From assembly GCA_001938485.1 (NCBI GenBank), contig MQRK01254915.1, positions 1-55,580 on the forward strand: DNA of 55,580 nucleotides, written 5' to 3'. The notes beneath the pieces are model-generated. The model saw only the letters and a list, made by a program, of their open reading frames with translations, was not told the origin of the DNA and ran no database searches. This DNA comes from Girardia tigrina. Lineage: Eukaryota. Within the stretch, counting starts at the first letter, position 1. Each line of letters opens with the position of its first letter. Shown here in pieces: positions 10,701-25,700 of this stretch. The position numbers and the translations under genes were made by a program.

Positions 10701-13700
10701 TACCAAAATATACTTAAAACGATAATCTTTATGGGGTAAGTATCGGTATTTTCCGCTGATATCCGTCAAACAACTTCTTTACGCTATGCACAAGATCTAT
10801 TAGAGAATCTGTGTTCATCAATTCAGTCACTATATACGAAATGATAAGTACTAGATTTACATAAAAACGAAGACATTTAACAACCGTTAGTTTTAATTAA
10901 ATTAGACGTGAATTTACATTTACTCTAACAACCAAAATCAATACGAACCCCAAAATATCTTACAGCAAACAAAAGATCTCAATCTCCGCTGAAAGCCGAA
11001 TAAAAAAACTCTTACAAATCTCTTATTTCACGTTCCAATGTCTTCATTTCGTCTTTGAAGCGAATTCCGATTAATTTAAACTTTGATTATATCGACCGAT
11101 GAGAAAATGCGACTAAATCGTCGGCAACAAAAATACAAATGACAATTAAATCTGATGAGCGTTATTTGACTTTTTATACTATCTAAATGTCATTTTTTGA
11201 ATATTTAAATAATCATATCTGTTTCTTCTTTTTATTTCCAAAGCAAGCGCTTTTCTTTTCCAATTATTAGTAATTTTATACACATTTCTAGCAATTTTTT
11301 TTATAAAAGTGGTAATCAAAACATCTCAAACTTGAAAAAAAATACTTTTCTTATCTCTAATACATCTTGTTACTAGACGAAAATATTAAGCATATTAAAA
11401 ATGAACTGATATGATGATGTAGCACTTAAAACATTTTAAATTTTTTCAACTCTCCTGCTTTTTATTTCCTGAAATAATAATCGAAATAAAAGAAAAGAAC
11501 CCAGAAATAAAGTTGTCTCTCGTCAAATGATCATTTTTGTATATAAGTTTCTCATAAAAACTGCCACCATTAAAATGGTAATTAAATTAGTTTTGAAAAA
11601 GATTCATGTAATAAAAGACTATATTAACAATGATATACTCGCGTTTATATATCAAAGCAATGTTTATGTAATCATTATGTCATTTAAATCATGAAAATAC
11701 TTTCAATAAAGTTGAAGAGGATGGTGTTTGGACATTGATTTTAGGATCAATAGATTTGATCAACAATGCTTCACACATCACCCTCTCCCAGTAATTATCA
11801 AATTTTGAACACAAAATCTTAAAATTGCTTACATCAACTTTACTATTCAAACAGTTCTTCTTATGTTGAGCAATATTGCTATCACTTTCCCTGCGATTAT
11901 GTTCCTGAATCCGTTGACAGAGATGACGACAAGTCTCTCTGATGTATGTGGCGTCACACCCATTACATTTATATTGATAAACTAAATTGGAACATAACCC
12001 AGTTGGAGTGATGGATTTACTACTAAACAAACTTCCTATCTTACATGATCTAGATACAATTTTTAAATTTAATAAATTATTTTCATCATGTTTCAAAATA
12101 GAGTTTTTGAATTTCCTGAAACCCTCAGAGTAGGGAACAGTCAAAACAAAACCAATTTTATCATAATTATTATTTATCTGATTTTTGTTTTTGTCGCTAT
12201 TTATGGTATTTGATTTTTCATTTTCATTTTCCGATTTAATTAATTTATCGACAGTTTCACGAGTTAATTTTTCAACTATCGATTTGGAATATCCATTTTT
12301 ATGAAGTAAATTCATTAACTTGTCAATACTTTCATTACATTTAGCGTACATAGACGAAAGTGTCCAAGATCTATAGATCAAACCTTTTATCATATTTCTT
12401 TTATATTTAGGTTCACAAAAACTGTTAGGGGTTGTATATAACCCTGTATCAGTTTTCTTTCTATAGATCCCAGTTTCAAAATGGTTGTTTTTTGCTCTTT
12501 CTATCAAAAGATCTAAGAATGGTAAAACATTATTGTTTTCATATTCTACCGTGAATTTTATATTTGAATGTAGGGAATTCATATAATTTAAGAAACATTC
12601 AACTTGTTCTTTATTATCAAACAATAGAAAAATATCATCCACATAACGCTTATAAATTTTAGGTTTAATACCATCATATAGACTTATTTTTTCTTCAATC
12701 TTGGAAAGAAATATCGAAGCTAAAGTTGAAGGTAATGGAGAACCCATAGCTACCCCATCAACCTGTCGATACCAATCATTATTAAATAAAAATCGTAAAT
12801 TCGATGTTGCAAAATATAACGATTCCCGAAAAGCAATCTCATCAACTAAATGATGTTCATACATTATTTCTTCATCATTTGCAACATAAGTCTATAGTTT
12901 CATGTAAAGGAACATTTGTAAACAAATTTACAACGTCAAACGATACCATGAAATTATTATTTACGTCAAGATTAGAAATTACCTCAACAAACTCAAAACT
13001 NNNNNNNNAAGTGAATTCAGAAGAAAGTAAAGGCTTTAGTTTTGAATCTAGATATTTAGCGATTCTGTACTGGGAAGTGTTAATCATTGAAATTACTGGT
13101 CTCATAGGAATTCCGTCTTTATGAACTTTTGGCAATATTGCTCAACATAAGAAGAACTGTTTGAATAGTAAAGTAAGTAATTTTAAGATTTTGTGTTCAA
13201 AATTTGATAATTACTGGGAGAGGGTGATGTGTGAAGCATTGTTGATCAAATCCTTTGATCCTAAAATCAATGTCCATACACCGTCCTCTTCAACTTTATT
13301 GAAAATATTTTCATGATTTAAATGACATAATGATTACATAAACATTGCTTTGATATATAAACGCGAGTATATCATTGTTAATTCAGTCTGATGATGACGG
13401 TTGATCCGTCGAAATTAATCACAATATATTCTGACGAAAATTTTTTGACTTTTAAAAATTCATTATCATCATTTTTTAAATATTTATAAAAAGACTATGT
13501 TTTTGATTGTTATTTTGTATACACGTAAAAAAAGAGTTAAGTGTAATTGAATAAATTGATATTTTTGAATTTATTTTAATCCGAATTCAACAGAATCATT
13601 TCCTATTTTTAAGAATAACTCAGAAATTATCTAAATTCTATCAATTCATCATTAAAAGTAAGTGCTTACCTCATATGCTTCTAGCCAAAGCAAAGGAGTC

Positions 13701-16700: not shown

Positions 16701-19700
16701 ATCGGAAACCTTAAAAATCGACTGAAATTTTCCATAGACAAATTTCTATGGTATTTTTTTGCAGATCGGTATACCATTTTAATTGAGGTTTGATAATCCA
16801 TTGGACTGTATATAAATGTGATTATCTGGATGCTTATTCACATATTTCATTTTCTAGTGGACGATTCACCATCGAATGTTTAATCACCGGATGATTTATC
16901 ATGCCATTTTTTACAGGTTGAAGAAAAATTAAGTACTACTTAAAGAGCAGATCAGGCGTGCAATTGAAAGTTACGGGAGATCAAGTCGTTTGACGTTTTT
17001 AAATGCATTCTCTCATTTGTCATACTGTTAATAAATAAAGTAATTTTTATGTTGTTGTAATGTAAATATATGTTATATATATTTTATCTTAATTCATTAG
17101 TCATAATTTTAATTCAGTCTTGGTCAGGCAGGGAAAATAGGTGTCCTAAAAATAGTTTGTTGTGAAAGTTATCGAATTTAGTACGAATTATCGTTAAAAC
17201 AATTGTTTTAAGCAGGTGTGATAAATCATCAGGTGATGAAAAGTCTTAGAATCATAAATTTCTATTTAAATTCAAATTTCTTATTTATTTTATTTATATT
17301 TTTTAATCCTCTTTTGAATTAAAATTTAAAACGCGAAATTTAAATAACATTTGAATATTGGAACTATTTATCAATCATCAAACATAGTTTGGAGGGGTTT
17401 AACTTTTGATTTTGGTGTCCAAACTACATCTACATTTTCTACTCTACATCGCTTGAATAAAAAATTTATTAATTTACCTTTATCTGAACATTTCGGGATC
17501 CAGACACATTTTATTGTTTCCACTGATTTTTCAGAACACAAACCATTTGGTGACAAACATCTTCGACTTCTAGTTTTAACAGATGAACTATCAACTGTTT
17601 CATAACATGTTTGCGAACATTCACTCCACTCAGACCATGGTGACCATATACTTTTATTTTTATTATCGCATTTGTTTTCGTTACATTTTTGAACATCCTT
17701 AGATGGACCACGACACCATTGTCCTCCAAAAGAAGGTGGTGGTTCCGTACATGTTCTGTCACGTTCTTGAAGTCCTGTTCCACACTTTGTAGAACACTCA
17801 GTCCATGATCCCCAATTAGACCACTGTCCATATACTATCATGTGTACTCAATAATTACTTAATTATAAATAATAAATTGTACCTGGGCATGGAGATTCAT
17901 TACATTTTGTTTTCATAATATTTTGACCATTACAATCTACACCTCCGAATTTTGGTGTAGGTTTATCACAGCGTCTGGTCTTTTGTTTCTCACCAGAACC
18001 ACAACTTTTAGAACAATATGACCATTTCGACCAAGCACTCCAATTTCCATCAATTGGACATTCGCCTTTTGAACAAGACCTGATCTGTACAATTTTAGTA
18101 TAAACTGAGTCTAATTTATTTAGCAAAAACTAATTTTAATCCTTAAACTTTTTATAACTTGTAGATAACAGACTTTAATACTAATTTAATATATAAATGA
18201 TACACAAAAATAAGAAATTTTAAATATTTTGATTAAAAATAAATACTAGAATTTGATATGACCTTTAAAGTTTTCTATTATTTACATTATTAAGCCTTAC
18301 TTCTAAATCTTTTCCTCTACAAAATTTTCCATTATTCTTCGGTTCAGGGTTGTTACAGTGTCGCTCTCTACGTTGGCTTCCACCCGAACCACATGTGACT
18401 GAACAAACTGACCATGAGTTCCATTCGGACCATGCCCCATCAATTGGACAAGGCAAATTTCTTTCACATAGAATGTCTTCCATTGCATCTCCAATACATG
18501 GCTATCTTATGAATTGAAAATGATAGCAAAATAAATATTTACCTTTCCTAAATTACTAGGCGGAGGATTATCGCATCTTCTAGTTCTCTGGCGGATACCG
18601 GAACCACACGTTGTTGAACAAGGACTCCAGTCTTGCCAAGAACTCCATTTGCCATCCGTAGGACAAAATCGTAATAAGCATTCACGTTTTTCTTCACTTT
18701 CTCCGATACATGCCATTCCTTCATTAGATGGCGGAGGATTATTGCAAAGTCGTTTTCTAATTCATTTATATTCAAATTGATTCCAAAAATATAATACCGT
18801 GCCATAAATCCTTTTCCGCAACTAACACTACATTTAGACCATTCTTCCCATTTTGACCATCCTCCAGCAATTTGAACTGTTACATATGCTGGATGAGAGT
18901 AAACTTCTCCTCTATCACTTGAAGCCACACAAAAATATATTCCTTCATGTTCCTTTTGAACTCCAATTATTCTTTAAAATTAAAATAAAATTTCTTGAAA
19001 TATTTCAATTAAATATACAAATATTTGTTAAAACAATAATGGGGAAAACTATAAGTGTTAAAATTAATCTTTGTGATATAACCGAAGCTGTAAAAGAAAT
19101 TATATTCTTAAAAGAAGGTATTCTTCAAGAATTACAAAGAATTATCTTGGCTGGAAAACAACTGTAGGATGGAAGACATTTGGTCGATTACGAAATTCAA
19201 AAAAAATCAACATTATATTTGGTTATGAGGCTGAAAGGGGGTTCCAAAAATGAGCAAGACATCCAACAATACGAACATAAACTAAGTCAAAGAAGAGTAA
19301 TCAAAGCGTAATTAACCAGATCAAGAAGATTATTATTCCAGAACGCTGTTTTCGAAGACGAATGGATAAAGAGAGTGGAAAAATATACCGAAAAACACGA
19401 TCTATTATTGAAAGAGTATGAAAATATGTTGAACCTTGGTTACAAATTAAAAAGAACGGAAATTGGAAGATTAGAAGATGAATTAGATAAAATCGAAGCT
19501 GAGGATCGAGAAATAAATGAAGTAACAAAAGAACGTTACAATATTTTAGAAGATCAAAAATATATTCAGCCAACAAATAAAGGTTATGACACCAAAGAAT
19601 TGGAATCGTTCGAGAAATTACAGATTCCTACGTTTGATGGGACGATTTCAAAATATGAAAATTGGAATGCCATTTTTATGGCGTTCATTGATACCGTAAA

Positions 19701-22700
19701 TGCACCCAAAACAATAAAATTACTTCATTTCAAAAAATATTTAATTGGAGAACCTTCACGAATAACTGAACGGTATGGATTCGATGATAATACTTATAAA
19801 GAAGCATTAAAAGCTTTAGAAAAACGATACGGAGTGGAAAAGAGCTATGTATCTTTGAAAGATGAAGTAAACCGATTTCGAAATGTTGATCGTTGAAAGT
19901 TTAAAGAAGTAGAAAAGTTTACGAATCTTCTACAATCATTAGTGAGTAGATTAAAGCGTTTGGAAAAAATTGCAGATTTGCATCCGGGATTTTTATATCA
20001 ATGTCTAATACTTAAATTACCGGAGATAATGGTTGCAGGATTTGAAAGATAGAGAGAAGACCACCATAAAGATCAAGGAGTTGAAATTTTATGTGAATGG
20101 GTAACAAGAGAAACAGAGATTCGTCAAACAGCTTATGAGACATTATACGGAGTTGATTCAAAAGAACGGATCAAGGACTACAAATTAACAAATATGACAC
20201 AATCTGTTGGAATGACAAGGAAACCAGGTGCGAAATTTTTTAATTCAGAGAAAAAGCAGAAGTGTCCTTGGTTTGAAAAAGGAGAATGTAGTTTCGGGGA
20301 TAATTGTCGAATGATACCTATAAAAGAAAATTCAGCAAAAATTCAACAAACAAATCAAACTGTAGAGAAGTTATGAAGGACTTCTGTAAATTTGGAGAAA
20401 AATGCAAATTTAGCCACTCCAAAATAAGATCAGATTACAAGATATATGATAAAACTGAAAGAAATCAAGAGAGCAAACATAACGATAAAGATAGTGAACT
20501 AAGACGAGAGACACAAAATTCAACTTCTTTGACAGTTGCAATGAGTAAAAATGTGATACTGGATCAGGTGGAAATCGCAATGCGAACATTACCCGTAACA
20601 TTAAAATATGGTGAAAATAAAGTGGATGTCATAGCTTTGCTTGACGATGGTAGTAATTGCAGATATATCTCAGAAGACGTGGCAGAATTATTGAAAATAG
20701 TAGGGAATAAAGAAAACATGACAATTCAAATGTTGAGTGAGACAGAAAGAGTTATGTCTACTAATCAGGTTAAAATTGAGATTTCTGGGGAAAATAATCA
20801 GGAGAGTTGGCCGTTTACAGCCTTAGCCTCAGTTGTTAAAGGAATTAATGTAATAAATTGGAATAGGGAGTCAAAAAAATGGAGACATTTGGAGGAAGTT
20901 CCATTTATTCAAATTAAAGAAGACGAATCAGTTAGCTTAGATCATCCTAAATTTCACAAATCTATCATTGAGATTAGTGGAGGTAAAAATAATCCAATTG
21001 CACGGTTAACGGCGTTGGGTTGGACAGTTGTTGAAAAAATGGGTAAAGGAGAAAGAAAAAAACTTGAATGCTAATTTTTCTTGCGCTGAAATTTTGACAG
21101 ATGCAGATTTAGATAAAATCGTCAGGTGTCAAGAAAAAAATGAATTTTAAATCTGCTTATATATGCAAGCAGTGATTATGTCAACAATGGTTTATTATGT
21201 CATCTAAACACGCCCAATAGGGTTTTGAAAGACCCATTTGAACATTAATCTTAGAATCTAAAGATCTGATATAAAGTGCTTCACAGGCCACCCTCTCCAA
21301 ATAATTCTTAAAACGAGAAACGTTTTAATTTTTCGTTTAAATTGACCAAATCCCTCTGAATATGGGATGCTGAAAATGTATTTTAAATTTGTTGATTCTT
21401 CTTTAACATTTTTTATCTTTAGATCCTAAGATTAATGTTCAAATGGGTCTTTCAAAAACCCTATTGAGTGTGTTTAGATGACATAACAATCCATTTATTA
21501 TATAATCACTGCTTGTCTATATAAGCAGATTTAAAACTGATATTTTTCTTGAGACCTGATGATGACGGTTATACTGTCGAAATTAATTGTCATAAAAAAA
21601 TAATGTTTAGTTAACAAATAGCGTGATTTTGTGTTTAAAAATAATTTGCCATCATTTTTTAATTTTCTGAATAATAATAATAACAATTTATACTGGTAAA
21701 AGTAGTGAAAATGGTTTCTTCCTATGCGTCCACTATTGAGCTCTTGATAATTATGTTCACGTAGAATATGCATCACATTCATATAAAGAGAAGAATCTTT
21801 TGTCAATTCTTGAAGTTATTCCAGAAACATAATCATGAAGGTGGCGACAAAATTGTTGAATATTTTGAGGATTATATGAGGACATGAAATCAAAAATTCT
21901 ATTTTTTTATTAAATTATTTATGATGTATCATTAAACTATTGTATCTAAAATCTATAAATCTTTAAAATGTTAATCGAAAATGATGAATAAATATTTAAG
22001 ATTAAAACAAATAACTGTACTGGATATGGTTTGTTAAGCGGTCCATAATGTTCTTATATTATTTTGCCTTGGGGGCCACATAATCCTTTTATAAAGAGAA
22101 TTAATCATATTTTATTATAGACAGAATATTTATTTTTATAAAATTTACTAGGTTTTCTATTATTCTTTCAGTTGAGAAGGTCTTTATTGCATGTTGTTTT
22201 AGAGTAATGACTCTAGCAAATCTACTGTTCCAATGATTATATTATTACAACTTGATGAAATACTGACTAGTAATAATTAATTTTTAATCAATATTAAAAT
22301 TTACTAAAAATTGCCAAATAAAATTTTAAAAAGTTTTATCATTTAAACTAACATTATTTTACAGAAATAATTTGTTATACTCATAAAAACTGTACAGTGT
22401 AAAGCCATGGGTACACTTATTCGAGTCGTGATTCGATTGTAAAGTTTATGTTATTTTTTAAAATTATGTTTGATAATATTTTTTATTATTTATATATTTA
22501 AATATCATAATATTATTACCTAAGTGAACCATTTTTTATAATAGATTTGACAAAGTCAAAGTCAACTTTCTTTTTATCTTTATACCAACTTATTGCTGGA
22601 ACTGGATATCCTTCAGCTGCACAGTGTAAAACAAGAACATCCCCCAGATTTACCGATGTATTGCTTGGCATGAGTGTTAAAACTGGAGAACCTAAATTAA

Positions 22701-25700
22701 ATTTAATAAATGTTTTTTAAGAATTTTTAATTCCAATTATCATATCTGGGAATACAGAAAAAAATTAATTTCTACATTATTTTTTTTAAAAAGAATATTT
22801 TTGATCTTCAAGAAGATTTTGCTGTCTATTTGGTTGGATAGGAAGGGTAAAGTGTATTAGGAACTGCTTCCAAGGAACTAAACCATTAATGTAAAGGTTT
22901 ACTTTTATTTACTGTTGATAAATGGATTAATTGAATGCATCGGTTAAGGAAAAGCGACCAGAATCGGTCAATCGTAAAGATGTCATTTTTCACTAGGATA
23001 ATGCTAGGCCTCACACAACTTTGGTCCCTCGGATAAAAATGATGGATATTGGTTGAAAATTGATGTTGCACTCATCATATAGTTCTGATTCCGCACCAAT
23101 GGATTACAACTTTTTTCGATCCTTGGACAACTCCATTCATGGTAAAAACTTTCAATGACAATGGCGTTATAAAATCTCACTTAACTCAGTTTTAGACGGA
23201 AAAAGATCATACTTTCTACGAGCGTGGAATTTTCAAGTTGTCAGAGAGACGTCAAAAGGTCATCAAACAAAATGGAAATTAAATCATATATTAAAGTTAA
23301 TTTCAAGTAAAAAAAACTCTTTTTTCAGTGAATAAATCGGCAATTAGGTAGTTGGCAATATAAGTTATAAAAAATTATTATATAAAAATTAAATAATCAA
23401 ATAATAAGATATTATAAAATCAATTTTATCTACAGTACTGGTCAAAAGTCTTAGAACAAAGTACATAAATATCAAATTTATTGTTGCAAACATTTGTACA
23501 AGCAAAACATTGATTAAAATATGGCAGTAATTGATACAAAACATTAAAGCACTATTGTAAAAAGCTGTCTCTGCATGATTAATATTTAGTTGACCTACAG
23601 TGGTTCTTCAAAACATTAAGGCCTTAGTAGCCTCTAAAAACCAGACCGATTTTATTGCATTTTGTAAGTCTTTCAAATAAGTGAGTCTTCTAATTGACAC
23701 TTTTTTCTTTAATATAATCCAAAGATTCTCATTAGGATTAAGGTCTGGGCTGTTTCCAGGCTATTGCAAGACATCAATTCTATTTTCCCTAAACCCCTGT
23801 TTCACAATCTTTGCCTGGTTGCATGGGACACCTTCCTGCTTCAATTTTCCACAATAATGAATTTGCATAATTAGCTTCAGTTTATTTTTCAAAACCTCTT
23901 TGTAAGTAGTGGCATTCGCGGTTGTTCCTGGAGGTAAAACCACAAAGGACGTCGGCCAAAAGCAGAAAAGCACCCAATACCATGCAGGAAGATGGATGCT
24001 TAACGGTAGGGTTTGTATACCATGTATTAATTTTGACCAACTTGTTTCCTTATAAATGGTCTATAACTCTGAAAAACTAGATTCATCTGAAAATAATACT
24101 TTTCGTCATTCAGCTTGAGTCCAGTGGCCATATTTCTTACAAAATGCAATGCGATCGGTTATGTTCTTTTTACTCAAAAGGGTTTTTTGGTTACTTTATA
24201 AGTACGACATTTAAATGTAACCTGCAATCATCGTCTTATACTTCTGCAGTTTAACCGAATTTCAGGTAACTCTGCTTTAATATCTGAAGCGGAGAGAAAC
24301 GGATTCACTACACACATTCTTCAAATCATACTATCATACTTCTTTTTTACAACAATATGAAAATTAAAATATTTATTAACAGTATGACAAATGAGAAATT
24401 CCATTTAAAAACTTCAAACGACTTGAACTCGCGCAACTTTCAACTGCACACTTGATCTGCTCTTTAAGTAGTACATATTTTTTCTTCGGGTTTCTTTGAC
24501 TTCCTGCTGCGGCCTATAAAAAACTTCCAGTCTATATAGCCCTTTCTTTCATTATTCCCTGAAGAAAAGTCCACATTGATGGATGATTGCATAAAAGCAA
24601 TGATTGAAGGCTTTAAATTATAAAATTTTATTTAACCCTTAAATGCATGATTTTTTATTTTTTCATGAAATATTTGATGACAGCTAAAGAATTTTGACGT
24701 TTATATCAATATTGGCGGGAGTTTTGACATGTTTTGTTATAATCGTCATAGACAAAAATGTACAAAGATAATTTATTTACAAAGGACAGCAATTATTTAC
24801 ACAAACTGGATGCATGGCACTTTCAAACGTTTGTTGTATCATTTTTGATACAAGATGCATTCAAGGGTTAAAGTATGATGAATTATTTAATAAAAAATCA
24901 TTAAAAAATTTTATTTAAAGTGTGATGAATTGTCCGGTGATGGAACATCCGATGGTGAATCGTCCTCTAGAAAAATAAAAATGTAATGAAGCGTCCTGTG
25001 ATGAATCATCCGGTGATGAATATTAACATATGTTAATATTCATAACGTTATACTGATTAAATTAAAAATACATGAAATTATTAACAGTTTTTAAATTGTA
25101 AATAATATTTTTAAAGTTCGTACTTTTAACAAGGAAATTGACTTGGCCTTGGGCTTCCCCTGCTGTATTGGACGCAATGCATTGGTATGTACCCGTATCT
25201 CGGGACTGAAAAAGGTAAATATTTAACCGTATTTCTGAAAGCAATTATACTTCAGCATGATCTATAATTAAATTTGAGTTGCTTATAAAAAGCCGAGAAC
25301 TGTTTTGAACAACGATTCCATTCTTTAACCATATTATTGAATCAACTTTTCCTTCCACTTTACACATAAGGATGGATCGTTTTAGATTTTCTTTTGGTTG
25401 ATCCGACTGATAAACAGTGACTTTTGGTTTTGCTGGAAAAGAAAAGAATCGATTATACCATGAAAAATATTAAAATTTCAACAATAAGAAAATAATTTTG
25501 AATTTTTAAAGACATGGACAAAAATAAAAGTAAAATAAAAATATTTTTTAATTTTTATTTCAGAATTTTAATGTTTCTAATTTTTTGCTAACAATATATA
25601 TTATATAAATAAATTAAAATCTCAATTTTTACAAATTTACAGTTATCATTATTAATTAAATAAAAAGTATAAAACTCAAATTATTATAAAAGTCTAAAAG

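Follow-up and report, generated by a model that had tools for sequence, protein, structure and literature searches.

Layout of the locus

The features found in the window, i.e., the whole stretch of 55,580 nucleotides that was analyzed, are listed in Table 1. The central one is a fragment of a Bel/Pao-derived LTR retrotransposon in which a ubiquitin domain, Gag, two CCCH zinc fingers and an aspartic protease follow one another. It is 85% identical across 2144 columns to a sister locus (L064), the similarity stopping at position 21119, while LTRs, reverse transcriptase (RT), RNase H and integrase are absent from this copy in the 55.6-kb window. Pfam scanning was done on the frames read with X at the stops. 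The N-terminal region of Gag is probably helical and matrix-like. With four stops, one lost zinc ligand and one frame break, the window copy is dead.

Table 1. Features at the retrotransposon locus (positions in the window)
Feature	Position	Strand	Evidence
Host-gene exons (TSP1 repeats)	17371..18973	-	TSP_1, E 3e-17 to 2e-7, four frames
Bel/Pao-derived LTR retrotransposon fragment, CCCH type, subfamily A, decayed, about 2.1 kb	18999..21119	+	Match to L064; purine skew 19001-21000
Ubiquitin domain fused in frame to Gag; C-terminal RLKGG; interrupted by one stop	19018..19242	+	PF00240, E 2.4e-14
Gag N-terminal region, charged, one stop	19243..19632	+	Aligns with sister copies
Gag core: DUF1759 (19633-20043) and C-terminal helices, two stops	19633..20157	+	PF03564, E 4.8e-8; Gag profile 155 bits
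CCCH finger 1, C-x7-C-x5-C-x3, last ligand lost here	20263..20319	+	Motif; His in 7 of 11 sister copies
Inter-finger linker with frame break in the window copy	20320..20360	+	Fingers in different frames here
CCCH finger 2, intact C-x7-C-x5-C-x3-H	20361..20417	+	zf-CCCH_4, E 2e-6; zf-CCCH, E 9e-5; both above cut-off
Aspartic protease, Bel/Pao type, LLDDGS at 20637-20654	20580..21071	+	Asp_protease_2 weak, E 0.07; public relatives
MITE-like inverted-repeat element, where the retrotransposon fragment ends	21118..21563	.	Inverted repeats I5, I12

The fragment seems to sit in an intron of the TSP1-repeat gene, on the opposite strand; an Ig-like exon was read by eye near 22560-22650. Inverted-repeat pairs of the DNA-transposon/MITE type lie at 11616-13389, at 16828-17075 paired with 24332-24996, and at 21118-21563, and one such pair brackets the region carrying the retrotransposon fragment. 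A decayed transposase piece, which we take to be mariner-like, was read by eye at about 22900-23290.

A pair of CCCH fingers between Gag and protease

The original prediction, made from the letters of this DNA, placed two C-x7-C-x5-C-x3-H motifs between Gag and protease, the first ending in Pro instead of its last ligand in this copy, and found no CCHC knuckle beside them. All of this was borne out: the positions were right, with finger 2 in another frame and ending at 20417, one base beyond the predicted end, and the knuckle pattern C-x2-C-x3/4-H-x4-C occurs nowhere in the six frames of the window. Finger 2 is the sole complete C-x7/8-C-x5-C-x3-H in those frames. Since the coding frames of the Gag-protease interval are free of Cys outside the fingers, there is no degenerate knuckle either. 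In 5000 base shuffles of this 430-nt interval, two C-x7-C-x5-C motifs never arose, and one arose in three. The proposed HMM scan called DUF1759, ubiquitin and finger 2 (27.8 bits against a cut-off of 24.6 for zf-CCCH_4; 22.7 against 20.5 for zf-CCCH) but left finger 1 below the cut-off at 16.9 bits; both fingers pass the Pfam cut-off in sister copies. In the 11 aligned sister copies, finger 1 ends in His (seven), Gln (one) or a gap (three), and both fingers share one frame in six. By this comparison, the Pro and the frame break look like decay of the window copy.

The family within the genome

In the genome, a search with the finger-protease frame scored 148 matches and one with the finger pair of a sister subfamily at least 150, from 653 candidates, counts that are inflated by duplicated contigs. 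At the best 30 protease loci, a finger signal lies within 1 kb upstream in 29, with an intact CCCH in 25 and a CCHC cluster in one, a tally biased towards CCCH, as finger 2 was part of the query and some of those loci went into the profile. The single CCHC cluster probably belongs to another, nested element. CCHC clusters beside L047/L067 and L052 were considered as the family's own and set aside as probably parts of other nested elements, because family similarity ends before them and their frames lack DUF1759.

Natural frames P0018, P0020 and P0021 contain ubiquitin, DUF1759 and the CCCH pair (zf-CCCH_4, E 1e-10 to 5e-12). The protease follows in frame in P0018 and P0021 and RT in P0018, which thus reads ubiquitin-Gag-CCCH-CCCH-protease-RT in one frame; P0019 holds RT, Peptidase_A17 and DUF5641. 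LTRs, a primer site and a polypurine tract were found in copies L059, L058, L051 and L067, with a pair of LTRs 98% alike; this evidence concerns subfamily B only, the window copy being of subfamily A. The primer site matches the 3' end of tRNA-Ile(AAT), a tRNA called by ARAGORN in one of four loci. On contigs C190029 and C255005, tRNA-Ile-like ends stand in tandem, about 310-340 nt apart.

In many subfamily B copies (L057, L058, L059, L060, L061, L067), RT, RNase H and integrase give way to a common stretch that follows the protease; these copies are a probable non-autonomous subfamily keeping Gag, fingers and protease. Contigs from four RNA or guessed-RNA runs match subfamily B, mostly at 90-99% identity and in one case across both fingers. 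As they represent subfamily B rather than the window copy, and may stem from DNA in the libraries, they were not counted as support.

Relatives in other assemblies

The public relatives returned by word search were all Bel/Pao-type polyproteins (15 of 15), and CCHC boxes were present in all 15 of the longer relatives. An HMMER profile was run against 1.84 billion representatives and the 150 best hits were taken; they included 65 proteins with both Gag and protease, only two of which were of CCCH type and 63 of CCHC type. The combination of DUF1759 with CCCH, searched for as the original prediction had proposed, is therefore uncommon among these hits.

A cluster look-up brought up P0174, an unbroken protein of 1,926 aa from another assembly, which runs in one frame through DUF1759 (E 1.7e-15), two CCCH motifs, protease, RT, Peptidase_A17, the integrase zinc domain and DUF5641; scanned as a whole protein, its CCCH motifs stay below the Pfam cut-off. 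Further outside cases are P0024 and P0175. All of them come from ENA or JGI assemblies, and some may derive from the same kind of animal as the genome analyzed here. No CCHC box is present in P0020, P0021, P0023, P0024 or P0174. Intact relatives carry CCCH fingers, and the outcome named beforehand as fatal to the prediction, intact relatives with CCHC and no CCCH, did not occur. Nor was a common annotated subfamily of this kind seen in the collections and papers searched, to which Repbase, Dfam and InterPro did not belong. Word-index searches with the finger-bearing P0023 and with the finger pair alone gave no matches, a weak result as HMMER later found P0024 and P0025. Look-alikes in the ESM Atlas, small clusters excepted, scored below 0.85 and were only ordinary DUF1759 clusters.

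The exchange of the Gag zinc module in the CCCH form is real and extends over a whole lineage with several deep subfamilies; between them, its members have the shared layout and spread described, a single open frame for Gag-Pol, LTRs accompanied by a purine tract and tRNA-Ile primer site, and fingers under selection (see below).

Phylogeny, ubiquitin and other captured host pieces

A ubiquitin-Gag-CCCH-protease architecture with two captured modules had been proposed. The architecture itself holds, but ubiquitin is not tied to the swap, as it also occurs on elements with CCHC boxes (L062 and L069 in this genome, P0005 and P0089 elsewhere). For P0174 and P0024, Gly-Gly at the corresponding place suggests a ubiquitin-like end, with no call from Pfam or phmmer.

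The Gag tree, of 28 rows hand-picked from 118 extracted (another Gag tree used 53), split the ubiquitin-bearing group from the other relatives at 100/99 and placed the CCCH rows in one group at 91/88. The ubiquitin-bearing group also held in the RT trees, at 99/97 with 29 rows and at 97/96 with 24 rows, the latter without three long rows, a near-duplicate and the partial row of L062. As was to be checked on RT, the elements are nested among CCHC-bearing Pao-type polyproteins, but the CCCH rows were not grouped: P0174 joined the ubiquitin-bearing CCHC protein P0005 at 97/76 (24 rows) and 91/73 (29 rows). A single CCCH clade was not rejected on RT (AU p 0.29). These trees were built without a gypsy or copia outgroup and without named reference elements, so that they do not assign the family to Sinbad, Suzu or another such group.

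Ubiquitin being found also on CCHC-bearing sister lineages, it probably came first, and the fingers probably replaced the knuckles inside the ubiquitin clade. There may have been two captures, or recombination between gag and pol. The finger pairs have two layouts, one with a linker of 10-14 aa and x5, the other with a linker of 3 aa and x4, which may mean two captures and counts against a single one. At L045 and L055, the fingers and protease of subfamily C follow a P0174-like Gag, pointing to recombination just upstream of the fingers and to modules that move between lineages.

The ubiquitin end reads LCGG, LCAG or LWGG in the subfamily B proteins P0018, P0020 and P0021, and LRGG or LKGG in other lineages; cleavage after the subfamily B ends may differ. 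In P0005 (residues 124-225), a full ubiquitin repeat comes after a partial one, which is what capture from a polyubiquitin mRNA would be expected to leave.

The number of captured modules also proved too low for some lineages, which add a third host piece, a fragment of HSP90. This middle-domain piece (PF00183, positions of about 240-349; E down to 4e-27) immediately precedes ubiquitin in L056, L054, L058, L059 and P0114, and in P0018, P0020 and P0114 it shares the reading frame. Its carriers are CCCH subfamily B and P0114, the Gag of which groups with the ubiquitin-bearing CCHC protein P0005. Moreover, the 5' portion of a 14-3-3 coding sequence (PF00244, E 3e-33) is present in L058 at 774-1223, with matching stretches in L051, L054 and L067. 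One copy has the piece upstream of Gag and three have it downstream of the purine tract, which maps it inside the LTR. A universal stress protein (USP) fragment in L059 (942-1541; PF00582, E 7e-7) has the same LTR position.

Proposed role of the fingers and alternative explanations

In retroviruses and LTR retrotransposons, the zinc knuckle is the usual RNA-holding part. We propose, with a probability of roughly 0.7, that the finger pair has taken over this nucleocapsid role, holding the element RNA at assembly, and that it stems from a host mRNA reached by template switching. The swap of the nucleocapsid for another fold, as originally predicted, stands insofar as CCCH fingers replace the knuckles lineage-wide; its RNA-binding part is a prediction from sequence likeness. 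In the proposed course of events, one lineage of the ubiquitin-Gag Bel/Pao clade would have lost its triple CCHC box, and two host-type CCCH fingers would have entered the same slot between capsid and protease. The putative pair would bind zinc and single-stranded RNA by base stacking and hold the element RNA during particle assembly. The capture itself probably took place through a template switch of reverse transcriptase to a host mRNA packaged alongside, and the ubiquitin, HSP90, 14-3-3 and USP pieces would be accounted for in the same way. From general ubiquitin biology, host deubiquitinases may cut after Gly-Gly and so free Gag; the altered Gly-Gly end of subfamily B was counted against this explanation.

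The fingers look fit for such a task. All four ligands are kept in 12 of 12 fingers from six representatives, and an aromatic residue lies between C1 and C2 in all 12, at C2+2 in ten and at C3+2 in 11. These are the three segments in which CCCH fingers carry their RNA-stacking aromatics, according to the accessible text of PMC8136824. The best solved matches of the pair are CPSF4/Yth1 (E 2e-10; 4.5e-7) and other RNA-binding CCCH proteins; the AlphaFold model of Gag with the fingers is of low confidence (mean pLDDT 45). As for the donor gene, a word search with the finger pair yielded no candidate and no single donor family stands out: the 42 CCCH-only hits, compared with Pfam over their top five families, are many-finger proteins of mixed kinds. 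A search of the planarian's own genome with MKRN1_C gave no match, and the controls were likewise silent.

The main alternative, itself unlikely, is that the knuckles were simply lost and the basic capsid tail packages the RNA, while the CCCH pair would bind RNA in an accessory capacity, for translation control, RNA localization or transcript protection. The interval around the fingers is indeed rich in Lys and Arg, Tas lacks the triple box (as given in the available part of PMC554778), and Atlas belpaovirus capsids bind nucleic acid without knuckles (available text of bioRxiv 10.64898/2026.03.22.711591), so that packaging need not fall to the fingers. On the other hand, they occupy the exact knuckle slot, and no element examined holds both modules in one Gag; substitution therefore fits better than addition.

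That the fingers are CCHC knuckles remodelled in place, without any capture, we consider improbable. The position in Gag is the same, loose CCCH-like spacings overlap knuckles 2-3 in three of the 63 CCHC elements, and Gag Cys-His boxes vary elsewhere, as in CsRn1, which has CHCC (PMC2582038), and in Troyka (PMC12440569), as far as the accessible parts of these papers go. However, none of 74 CCHC intervals exceeds 3.2 bits with the finger-pair profile, compared with 22-52 bits for the four outside CCCH proteins. The matches of the fingers to cellular CCCH families exceed the Pfam cut-offs, and the match to CPSF4 is as given above.

It is a shade less probable still that the fingers are a passenger host fragment devoid of function, comparable to the pieces of 14-3-3 or USP that the LTRs contain. 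The clade does carry several captured fragments, and many copies are deletion derivatives unable to move alone. Yet over the 38 finger codons, pN between subfamilies is 0.20-0.32 and pS 0.60-0.94 (uncorrected, five copies), and within subfamily C these values are 0 and 0.22. The fingers are under purifying selection between subfamilies: the pairwise counts already point to a dN/dS far below 1, and the six divergent representatives keep every ligand with synonymous sites near saturation. Moreover, the fingers are in frame in an unbroken polyprotein, in elements that have no other Cys-His module.

An artefact, be it a nested insertion or mis-assembly of a host CCCH exon or a domesticated host gene, has next to no chance of being right: while the copy in the window is indeed broken and nesting of elements is frequent (L047/L067, L052), the same layout recurs in more than 100 places, several subfamilies and independent assemblies, the window copy itself has its stops, lost ligand and frame break, and P0174 and P0020 already refute the idea.

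Beyond the capture of the fingers for the nucleocapsid role, a wider picture may be drawn tentatively, with the odds somewhat against it. An undescribed Bel/Pao-derived clade would package its genome with the captured CCCH pair, its nucleocapsid slot being a cassette filled more than once and traded between Gag lineages, and it would habitually capture pieces of abundant stress-gene mRNAs (ubiquitin, HSP90, 14-3-3, USP), some of them into the LTRs. Quite apart from this picture, a successful, high-copy lineage with a swapped fold would make the nucleocapsid job independent of the knuckle, and the ubiquitin-Gag sisters with normal knuckles are a natural comparison for what a nucleocapsid must do. 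In addition, a gene model with CCCH fingers or ubiquitin may turn out, in genomes of this kind, to be a piece of a retrotransposon, which is a warning for annotation.

Comparison with known systems

In TTP/TIS11 proteins, two C-x8 fingers are separated by an 18-residue linker. The element fingers differ from this layout, with x7 (and one x8, in P0024) and linkers of 3, 10 or 14 residues. There may be a likeness to makorin fingers 1-2, which are x7 fingers with a 10-residue linker. Ligand spacing and the glycine and aromatic positions are like those of CPSF4/Yth1, MBNL and TIS11d/TTP; the element pair differs in lying inside a Gag-Pol polyprotein.

The triple Cys-His box is described as a hallmark of Pao/BEL, with Tas as an exception, in the accessible part of PMC554778, and three CCHC knuckles as a distinguishing feature of belpaoviruses in that of bioRxiv 10.64898/2026.03.22.711591. 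Lacking this box, the CCCH elements were classed as a Bel/Pao-derived variant and not as a canonical member. Other Bel/Pao features are present: the DUF1759 Gag core and the protease motifs LLDxG (LLDDGS in the window) and LIG (P0019, P0174), as given in the same part of PMC554778. The order protease-RT-RNase H-integrase in one frame with Gag was seen in relatives only (P0174, P0018, P0019).

The CCCH-fingered Bel/Pao form is probably new, short of proof. No Bel/Pao element with CCCH fingers or fused ubiquitin was met in the literature searched, which took in the accessible parts of PMC2864245, PMC12440569 and PMC10799480 and few subscription journals. The main text of the metazoan BEL/Pao survey (PMC3118150) mentions neither "zinc" nor "ubiquitin"; the sequences in its supplement may include such elements. 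A Gag "CCCH" motif in place of CCHC is reported in the accessible part of PMC2582038 for Saci-2 of Schistosoma mansoni, a CsRn1-like Ty3/gypsy element and hence of another superfamily. It is known there by description and may be a host-type C-x7/8-C-x5-C-x3-H pair or a re-ordered knuckle.

The closest described likeness is to Bel/Pao (Belpaoviridae) LTR retrotransposons such as Sinbad and Saci-1 of S. mansoni, which have the DUF1759 Gag, LLDxGS protease, YMDD RT, Peptidase_A17 and integrase with DUF5641, protease-RT-RNase H-integrase in one frame, and LTRs with a primer site and purine tract. In contrast to these, the CCCH elements have two CCCH fingers in place of the triple Cys-His box and carry ubiquitin, in some cases also the HSP90 piece, before Gag. 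In comparison, the ubiquitin-bearing CCHC elements (P0005, P0089, L062, L069) have ubiquitin fused to Gag and belong to the same strongly supported group in both Gag and RT trees but keep their CCHC boxes, which makes them sister or source lineages of the CCCH form.
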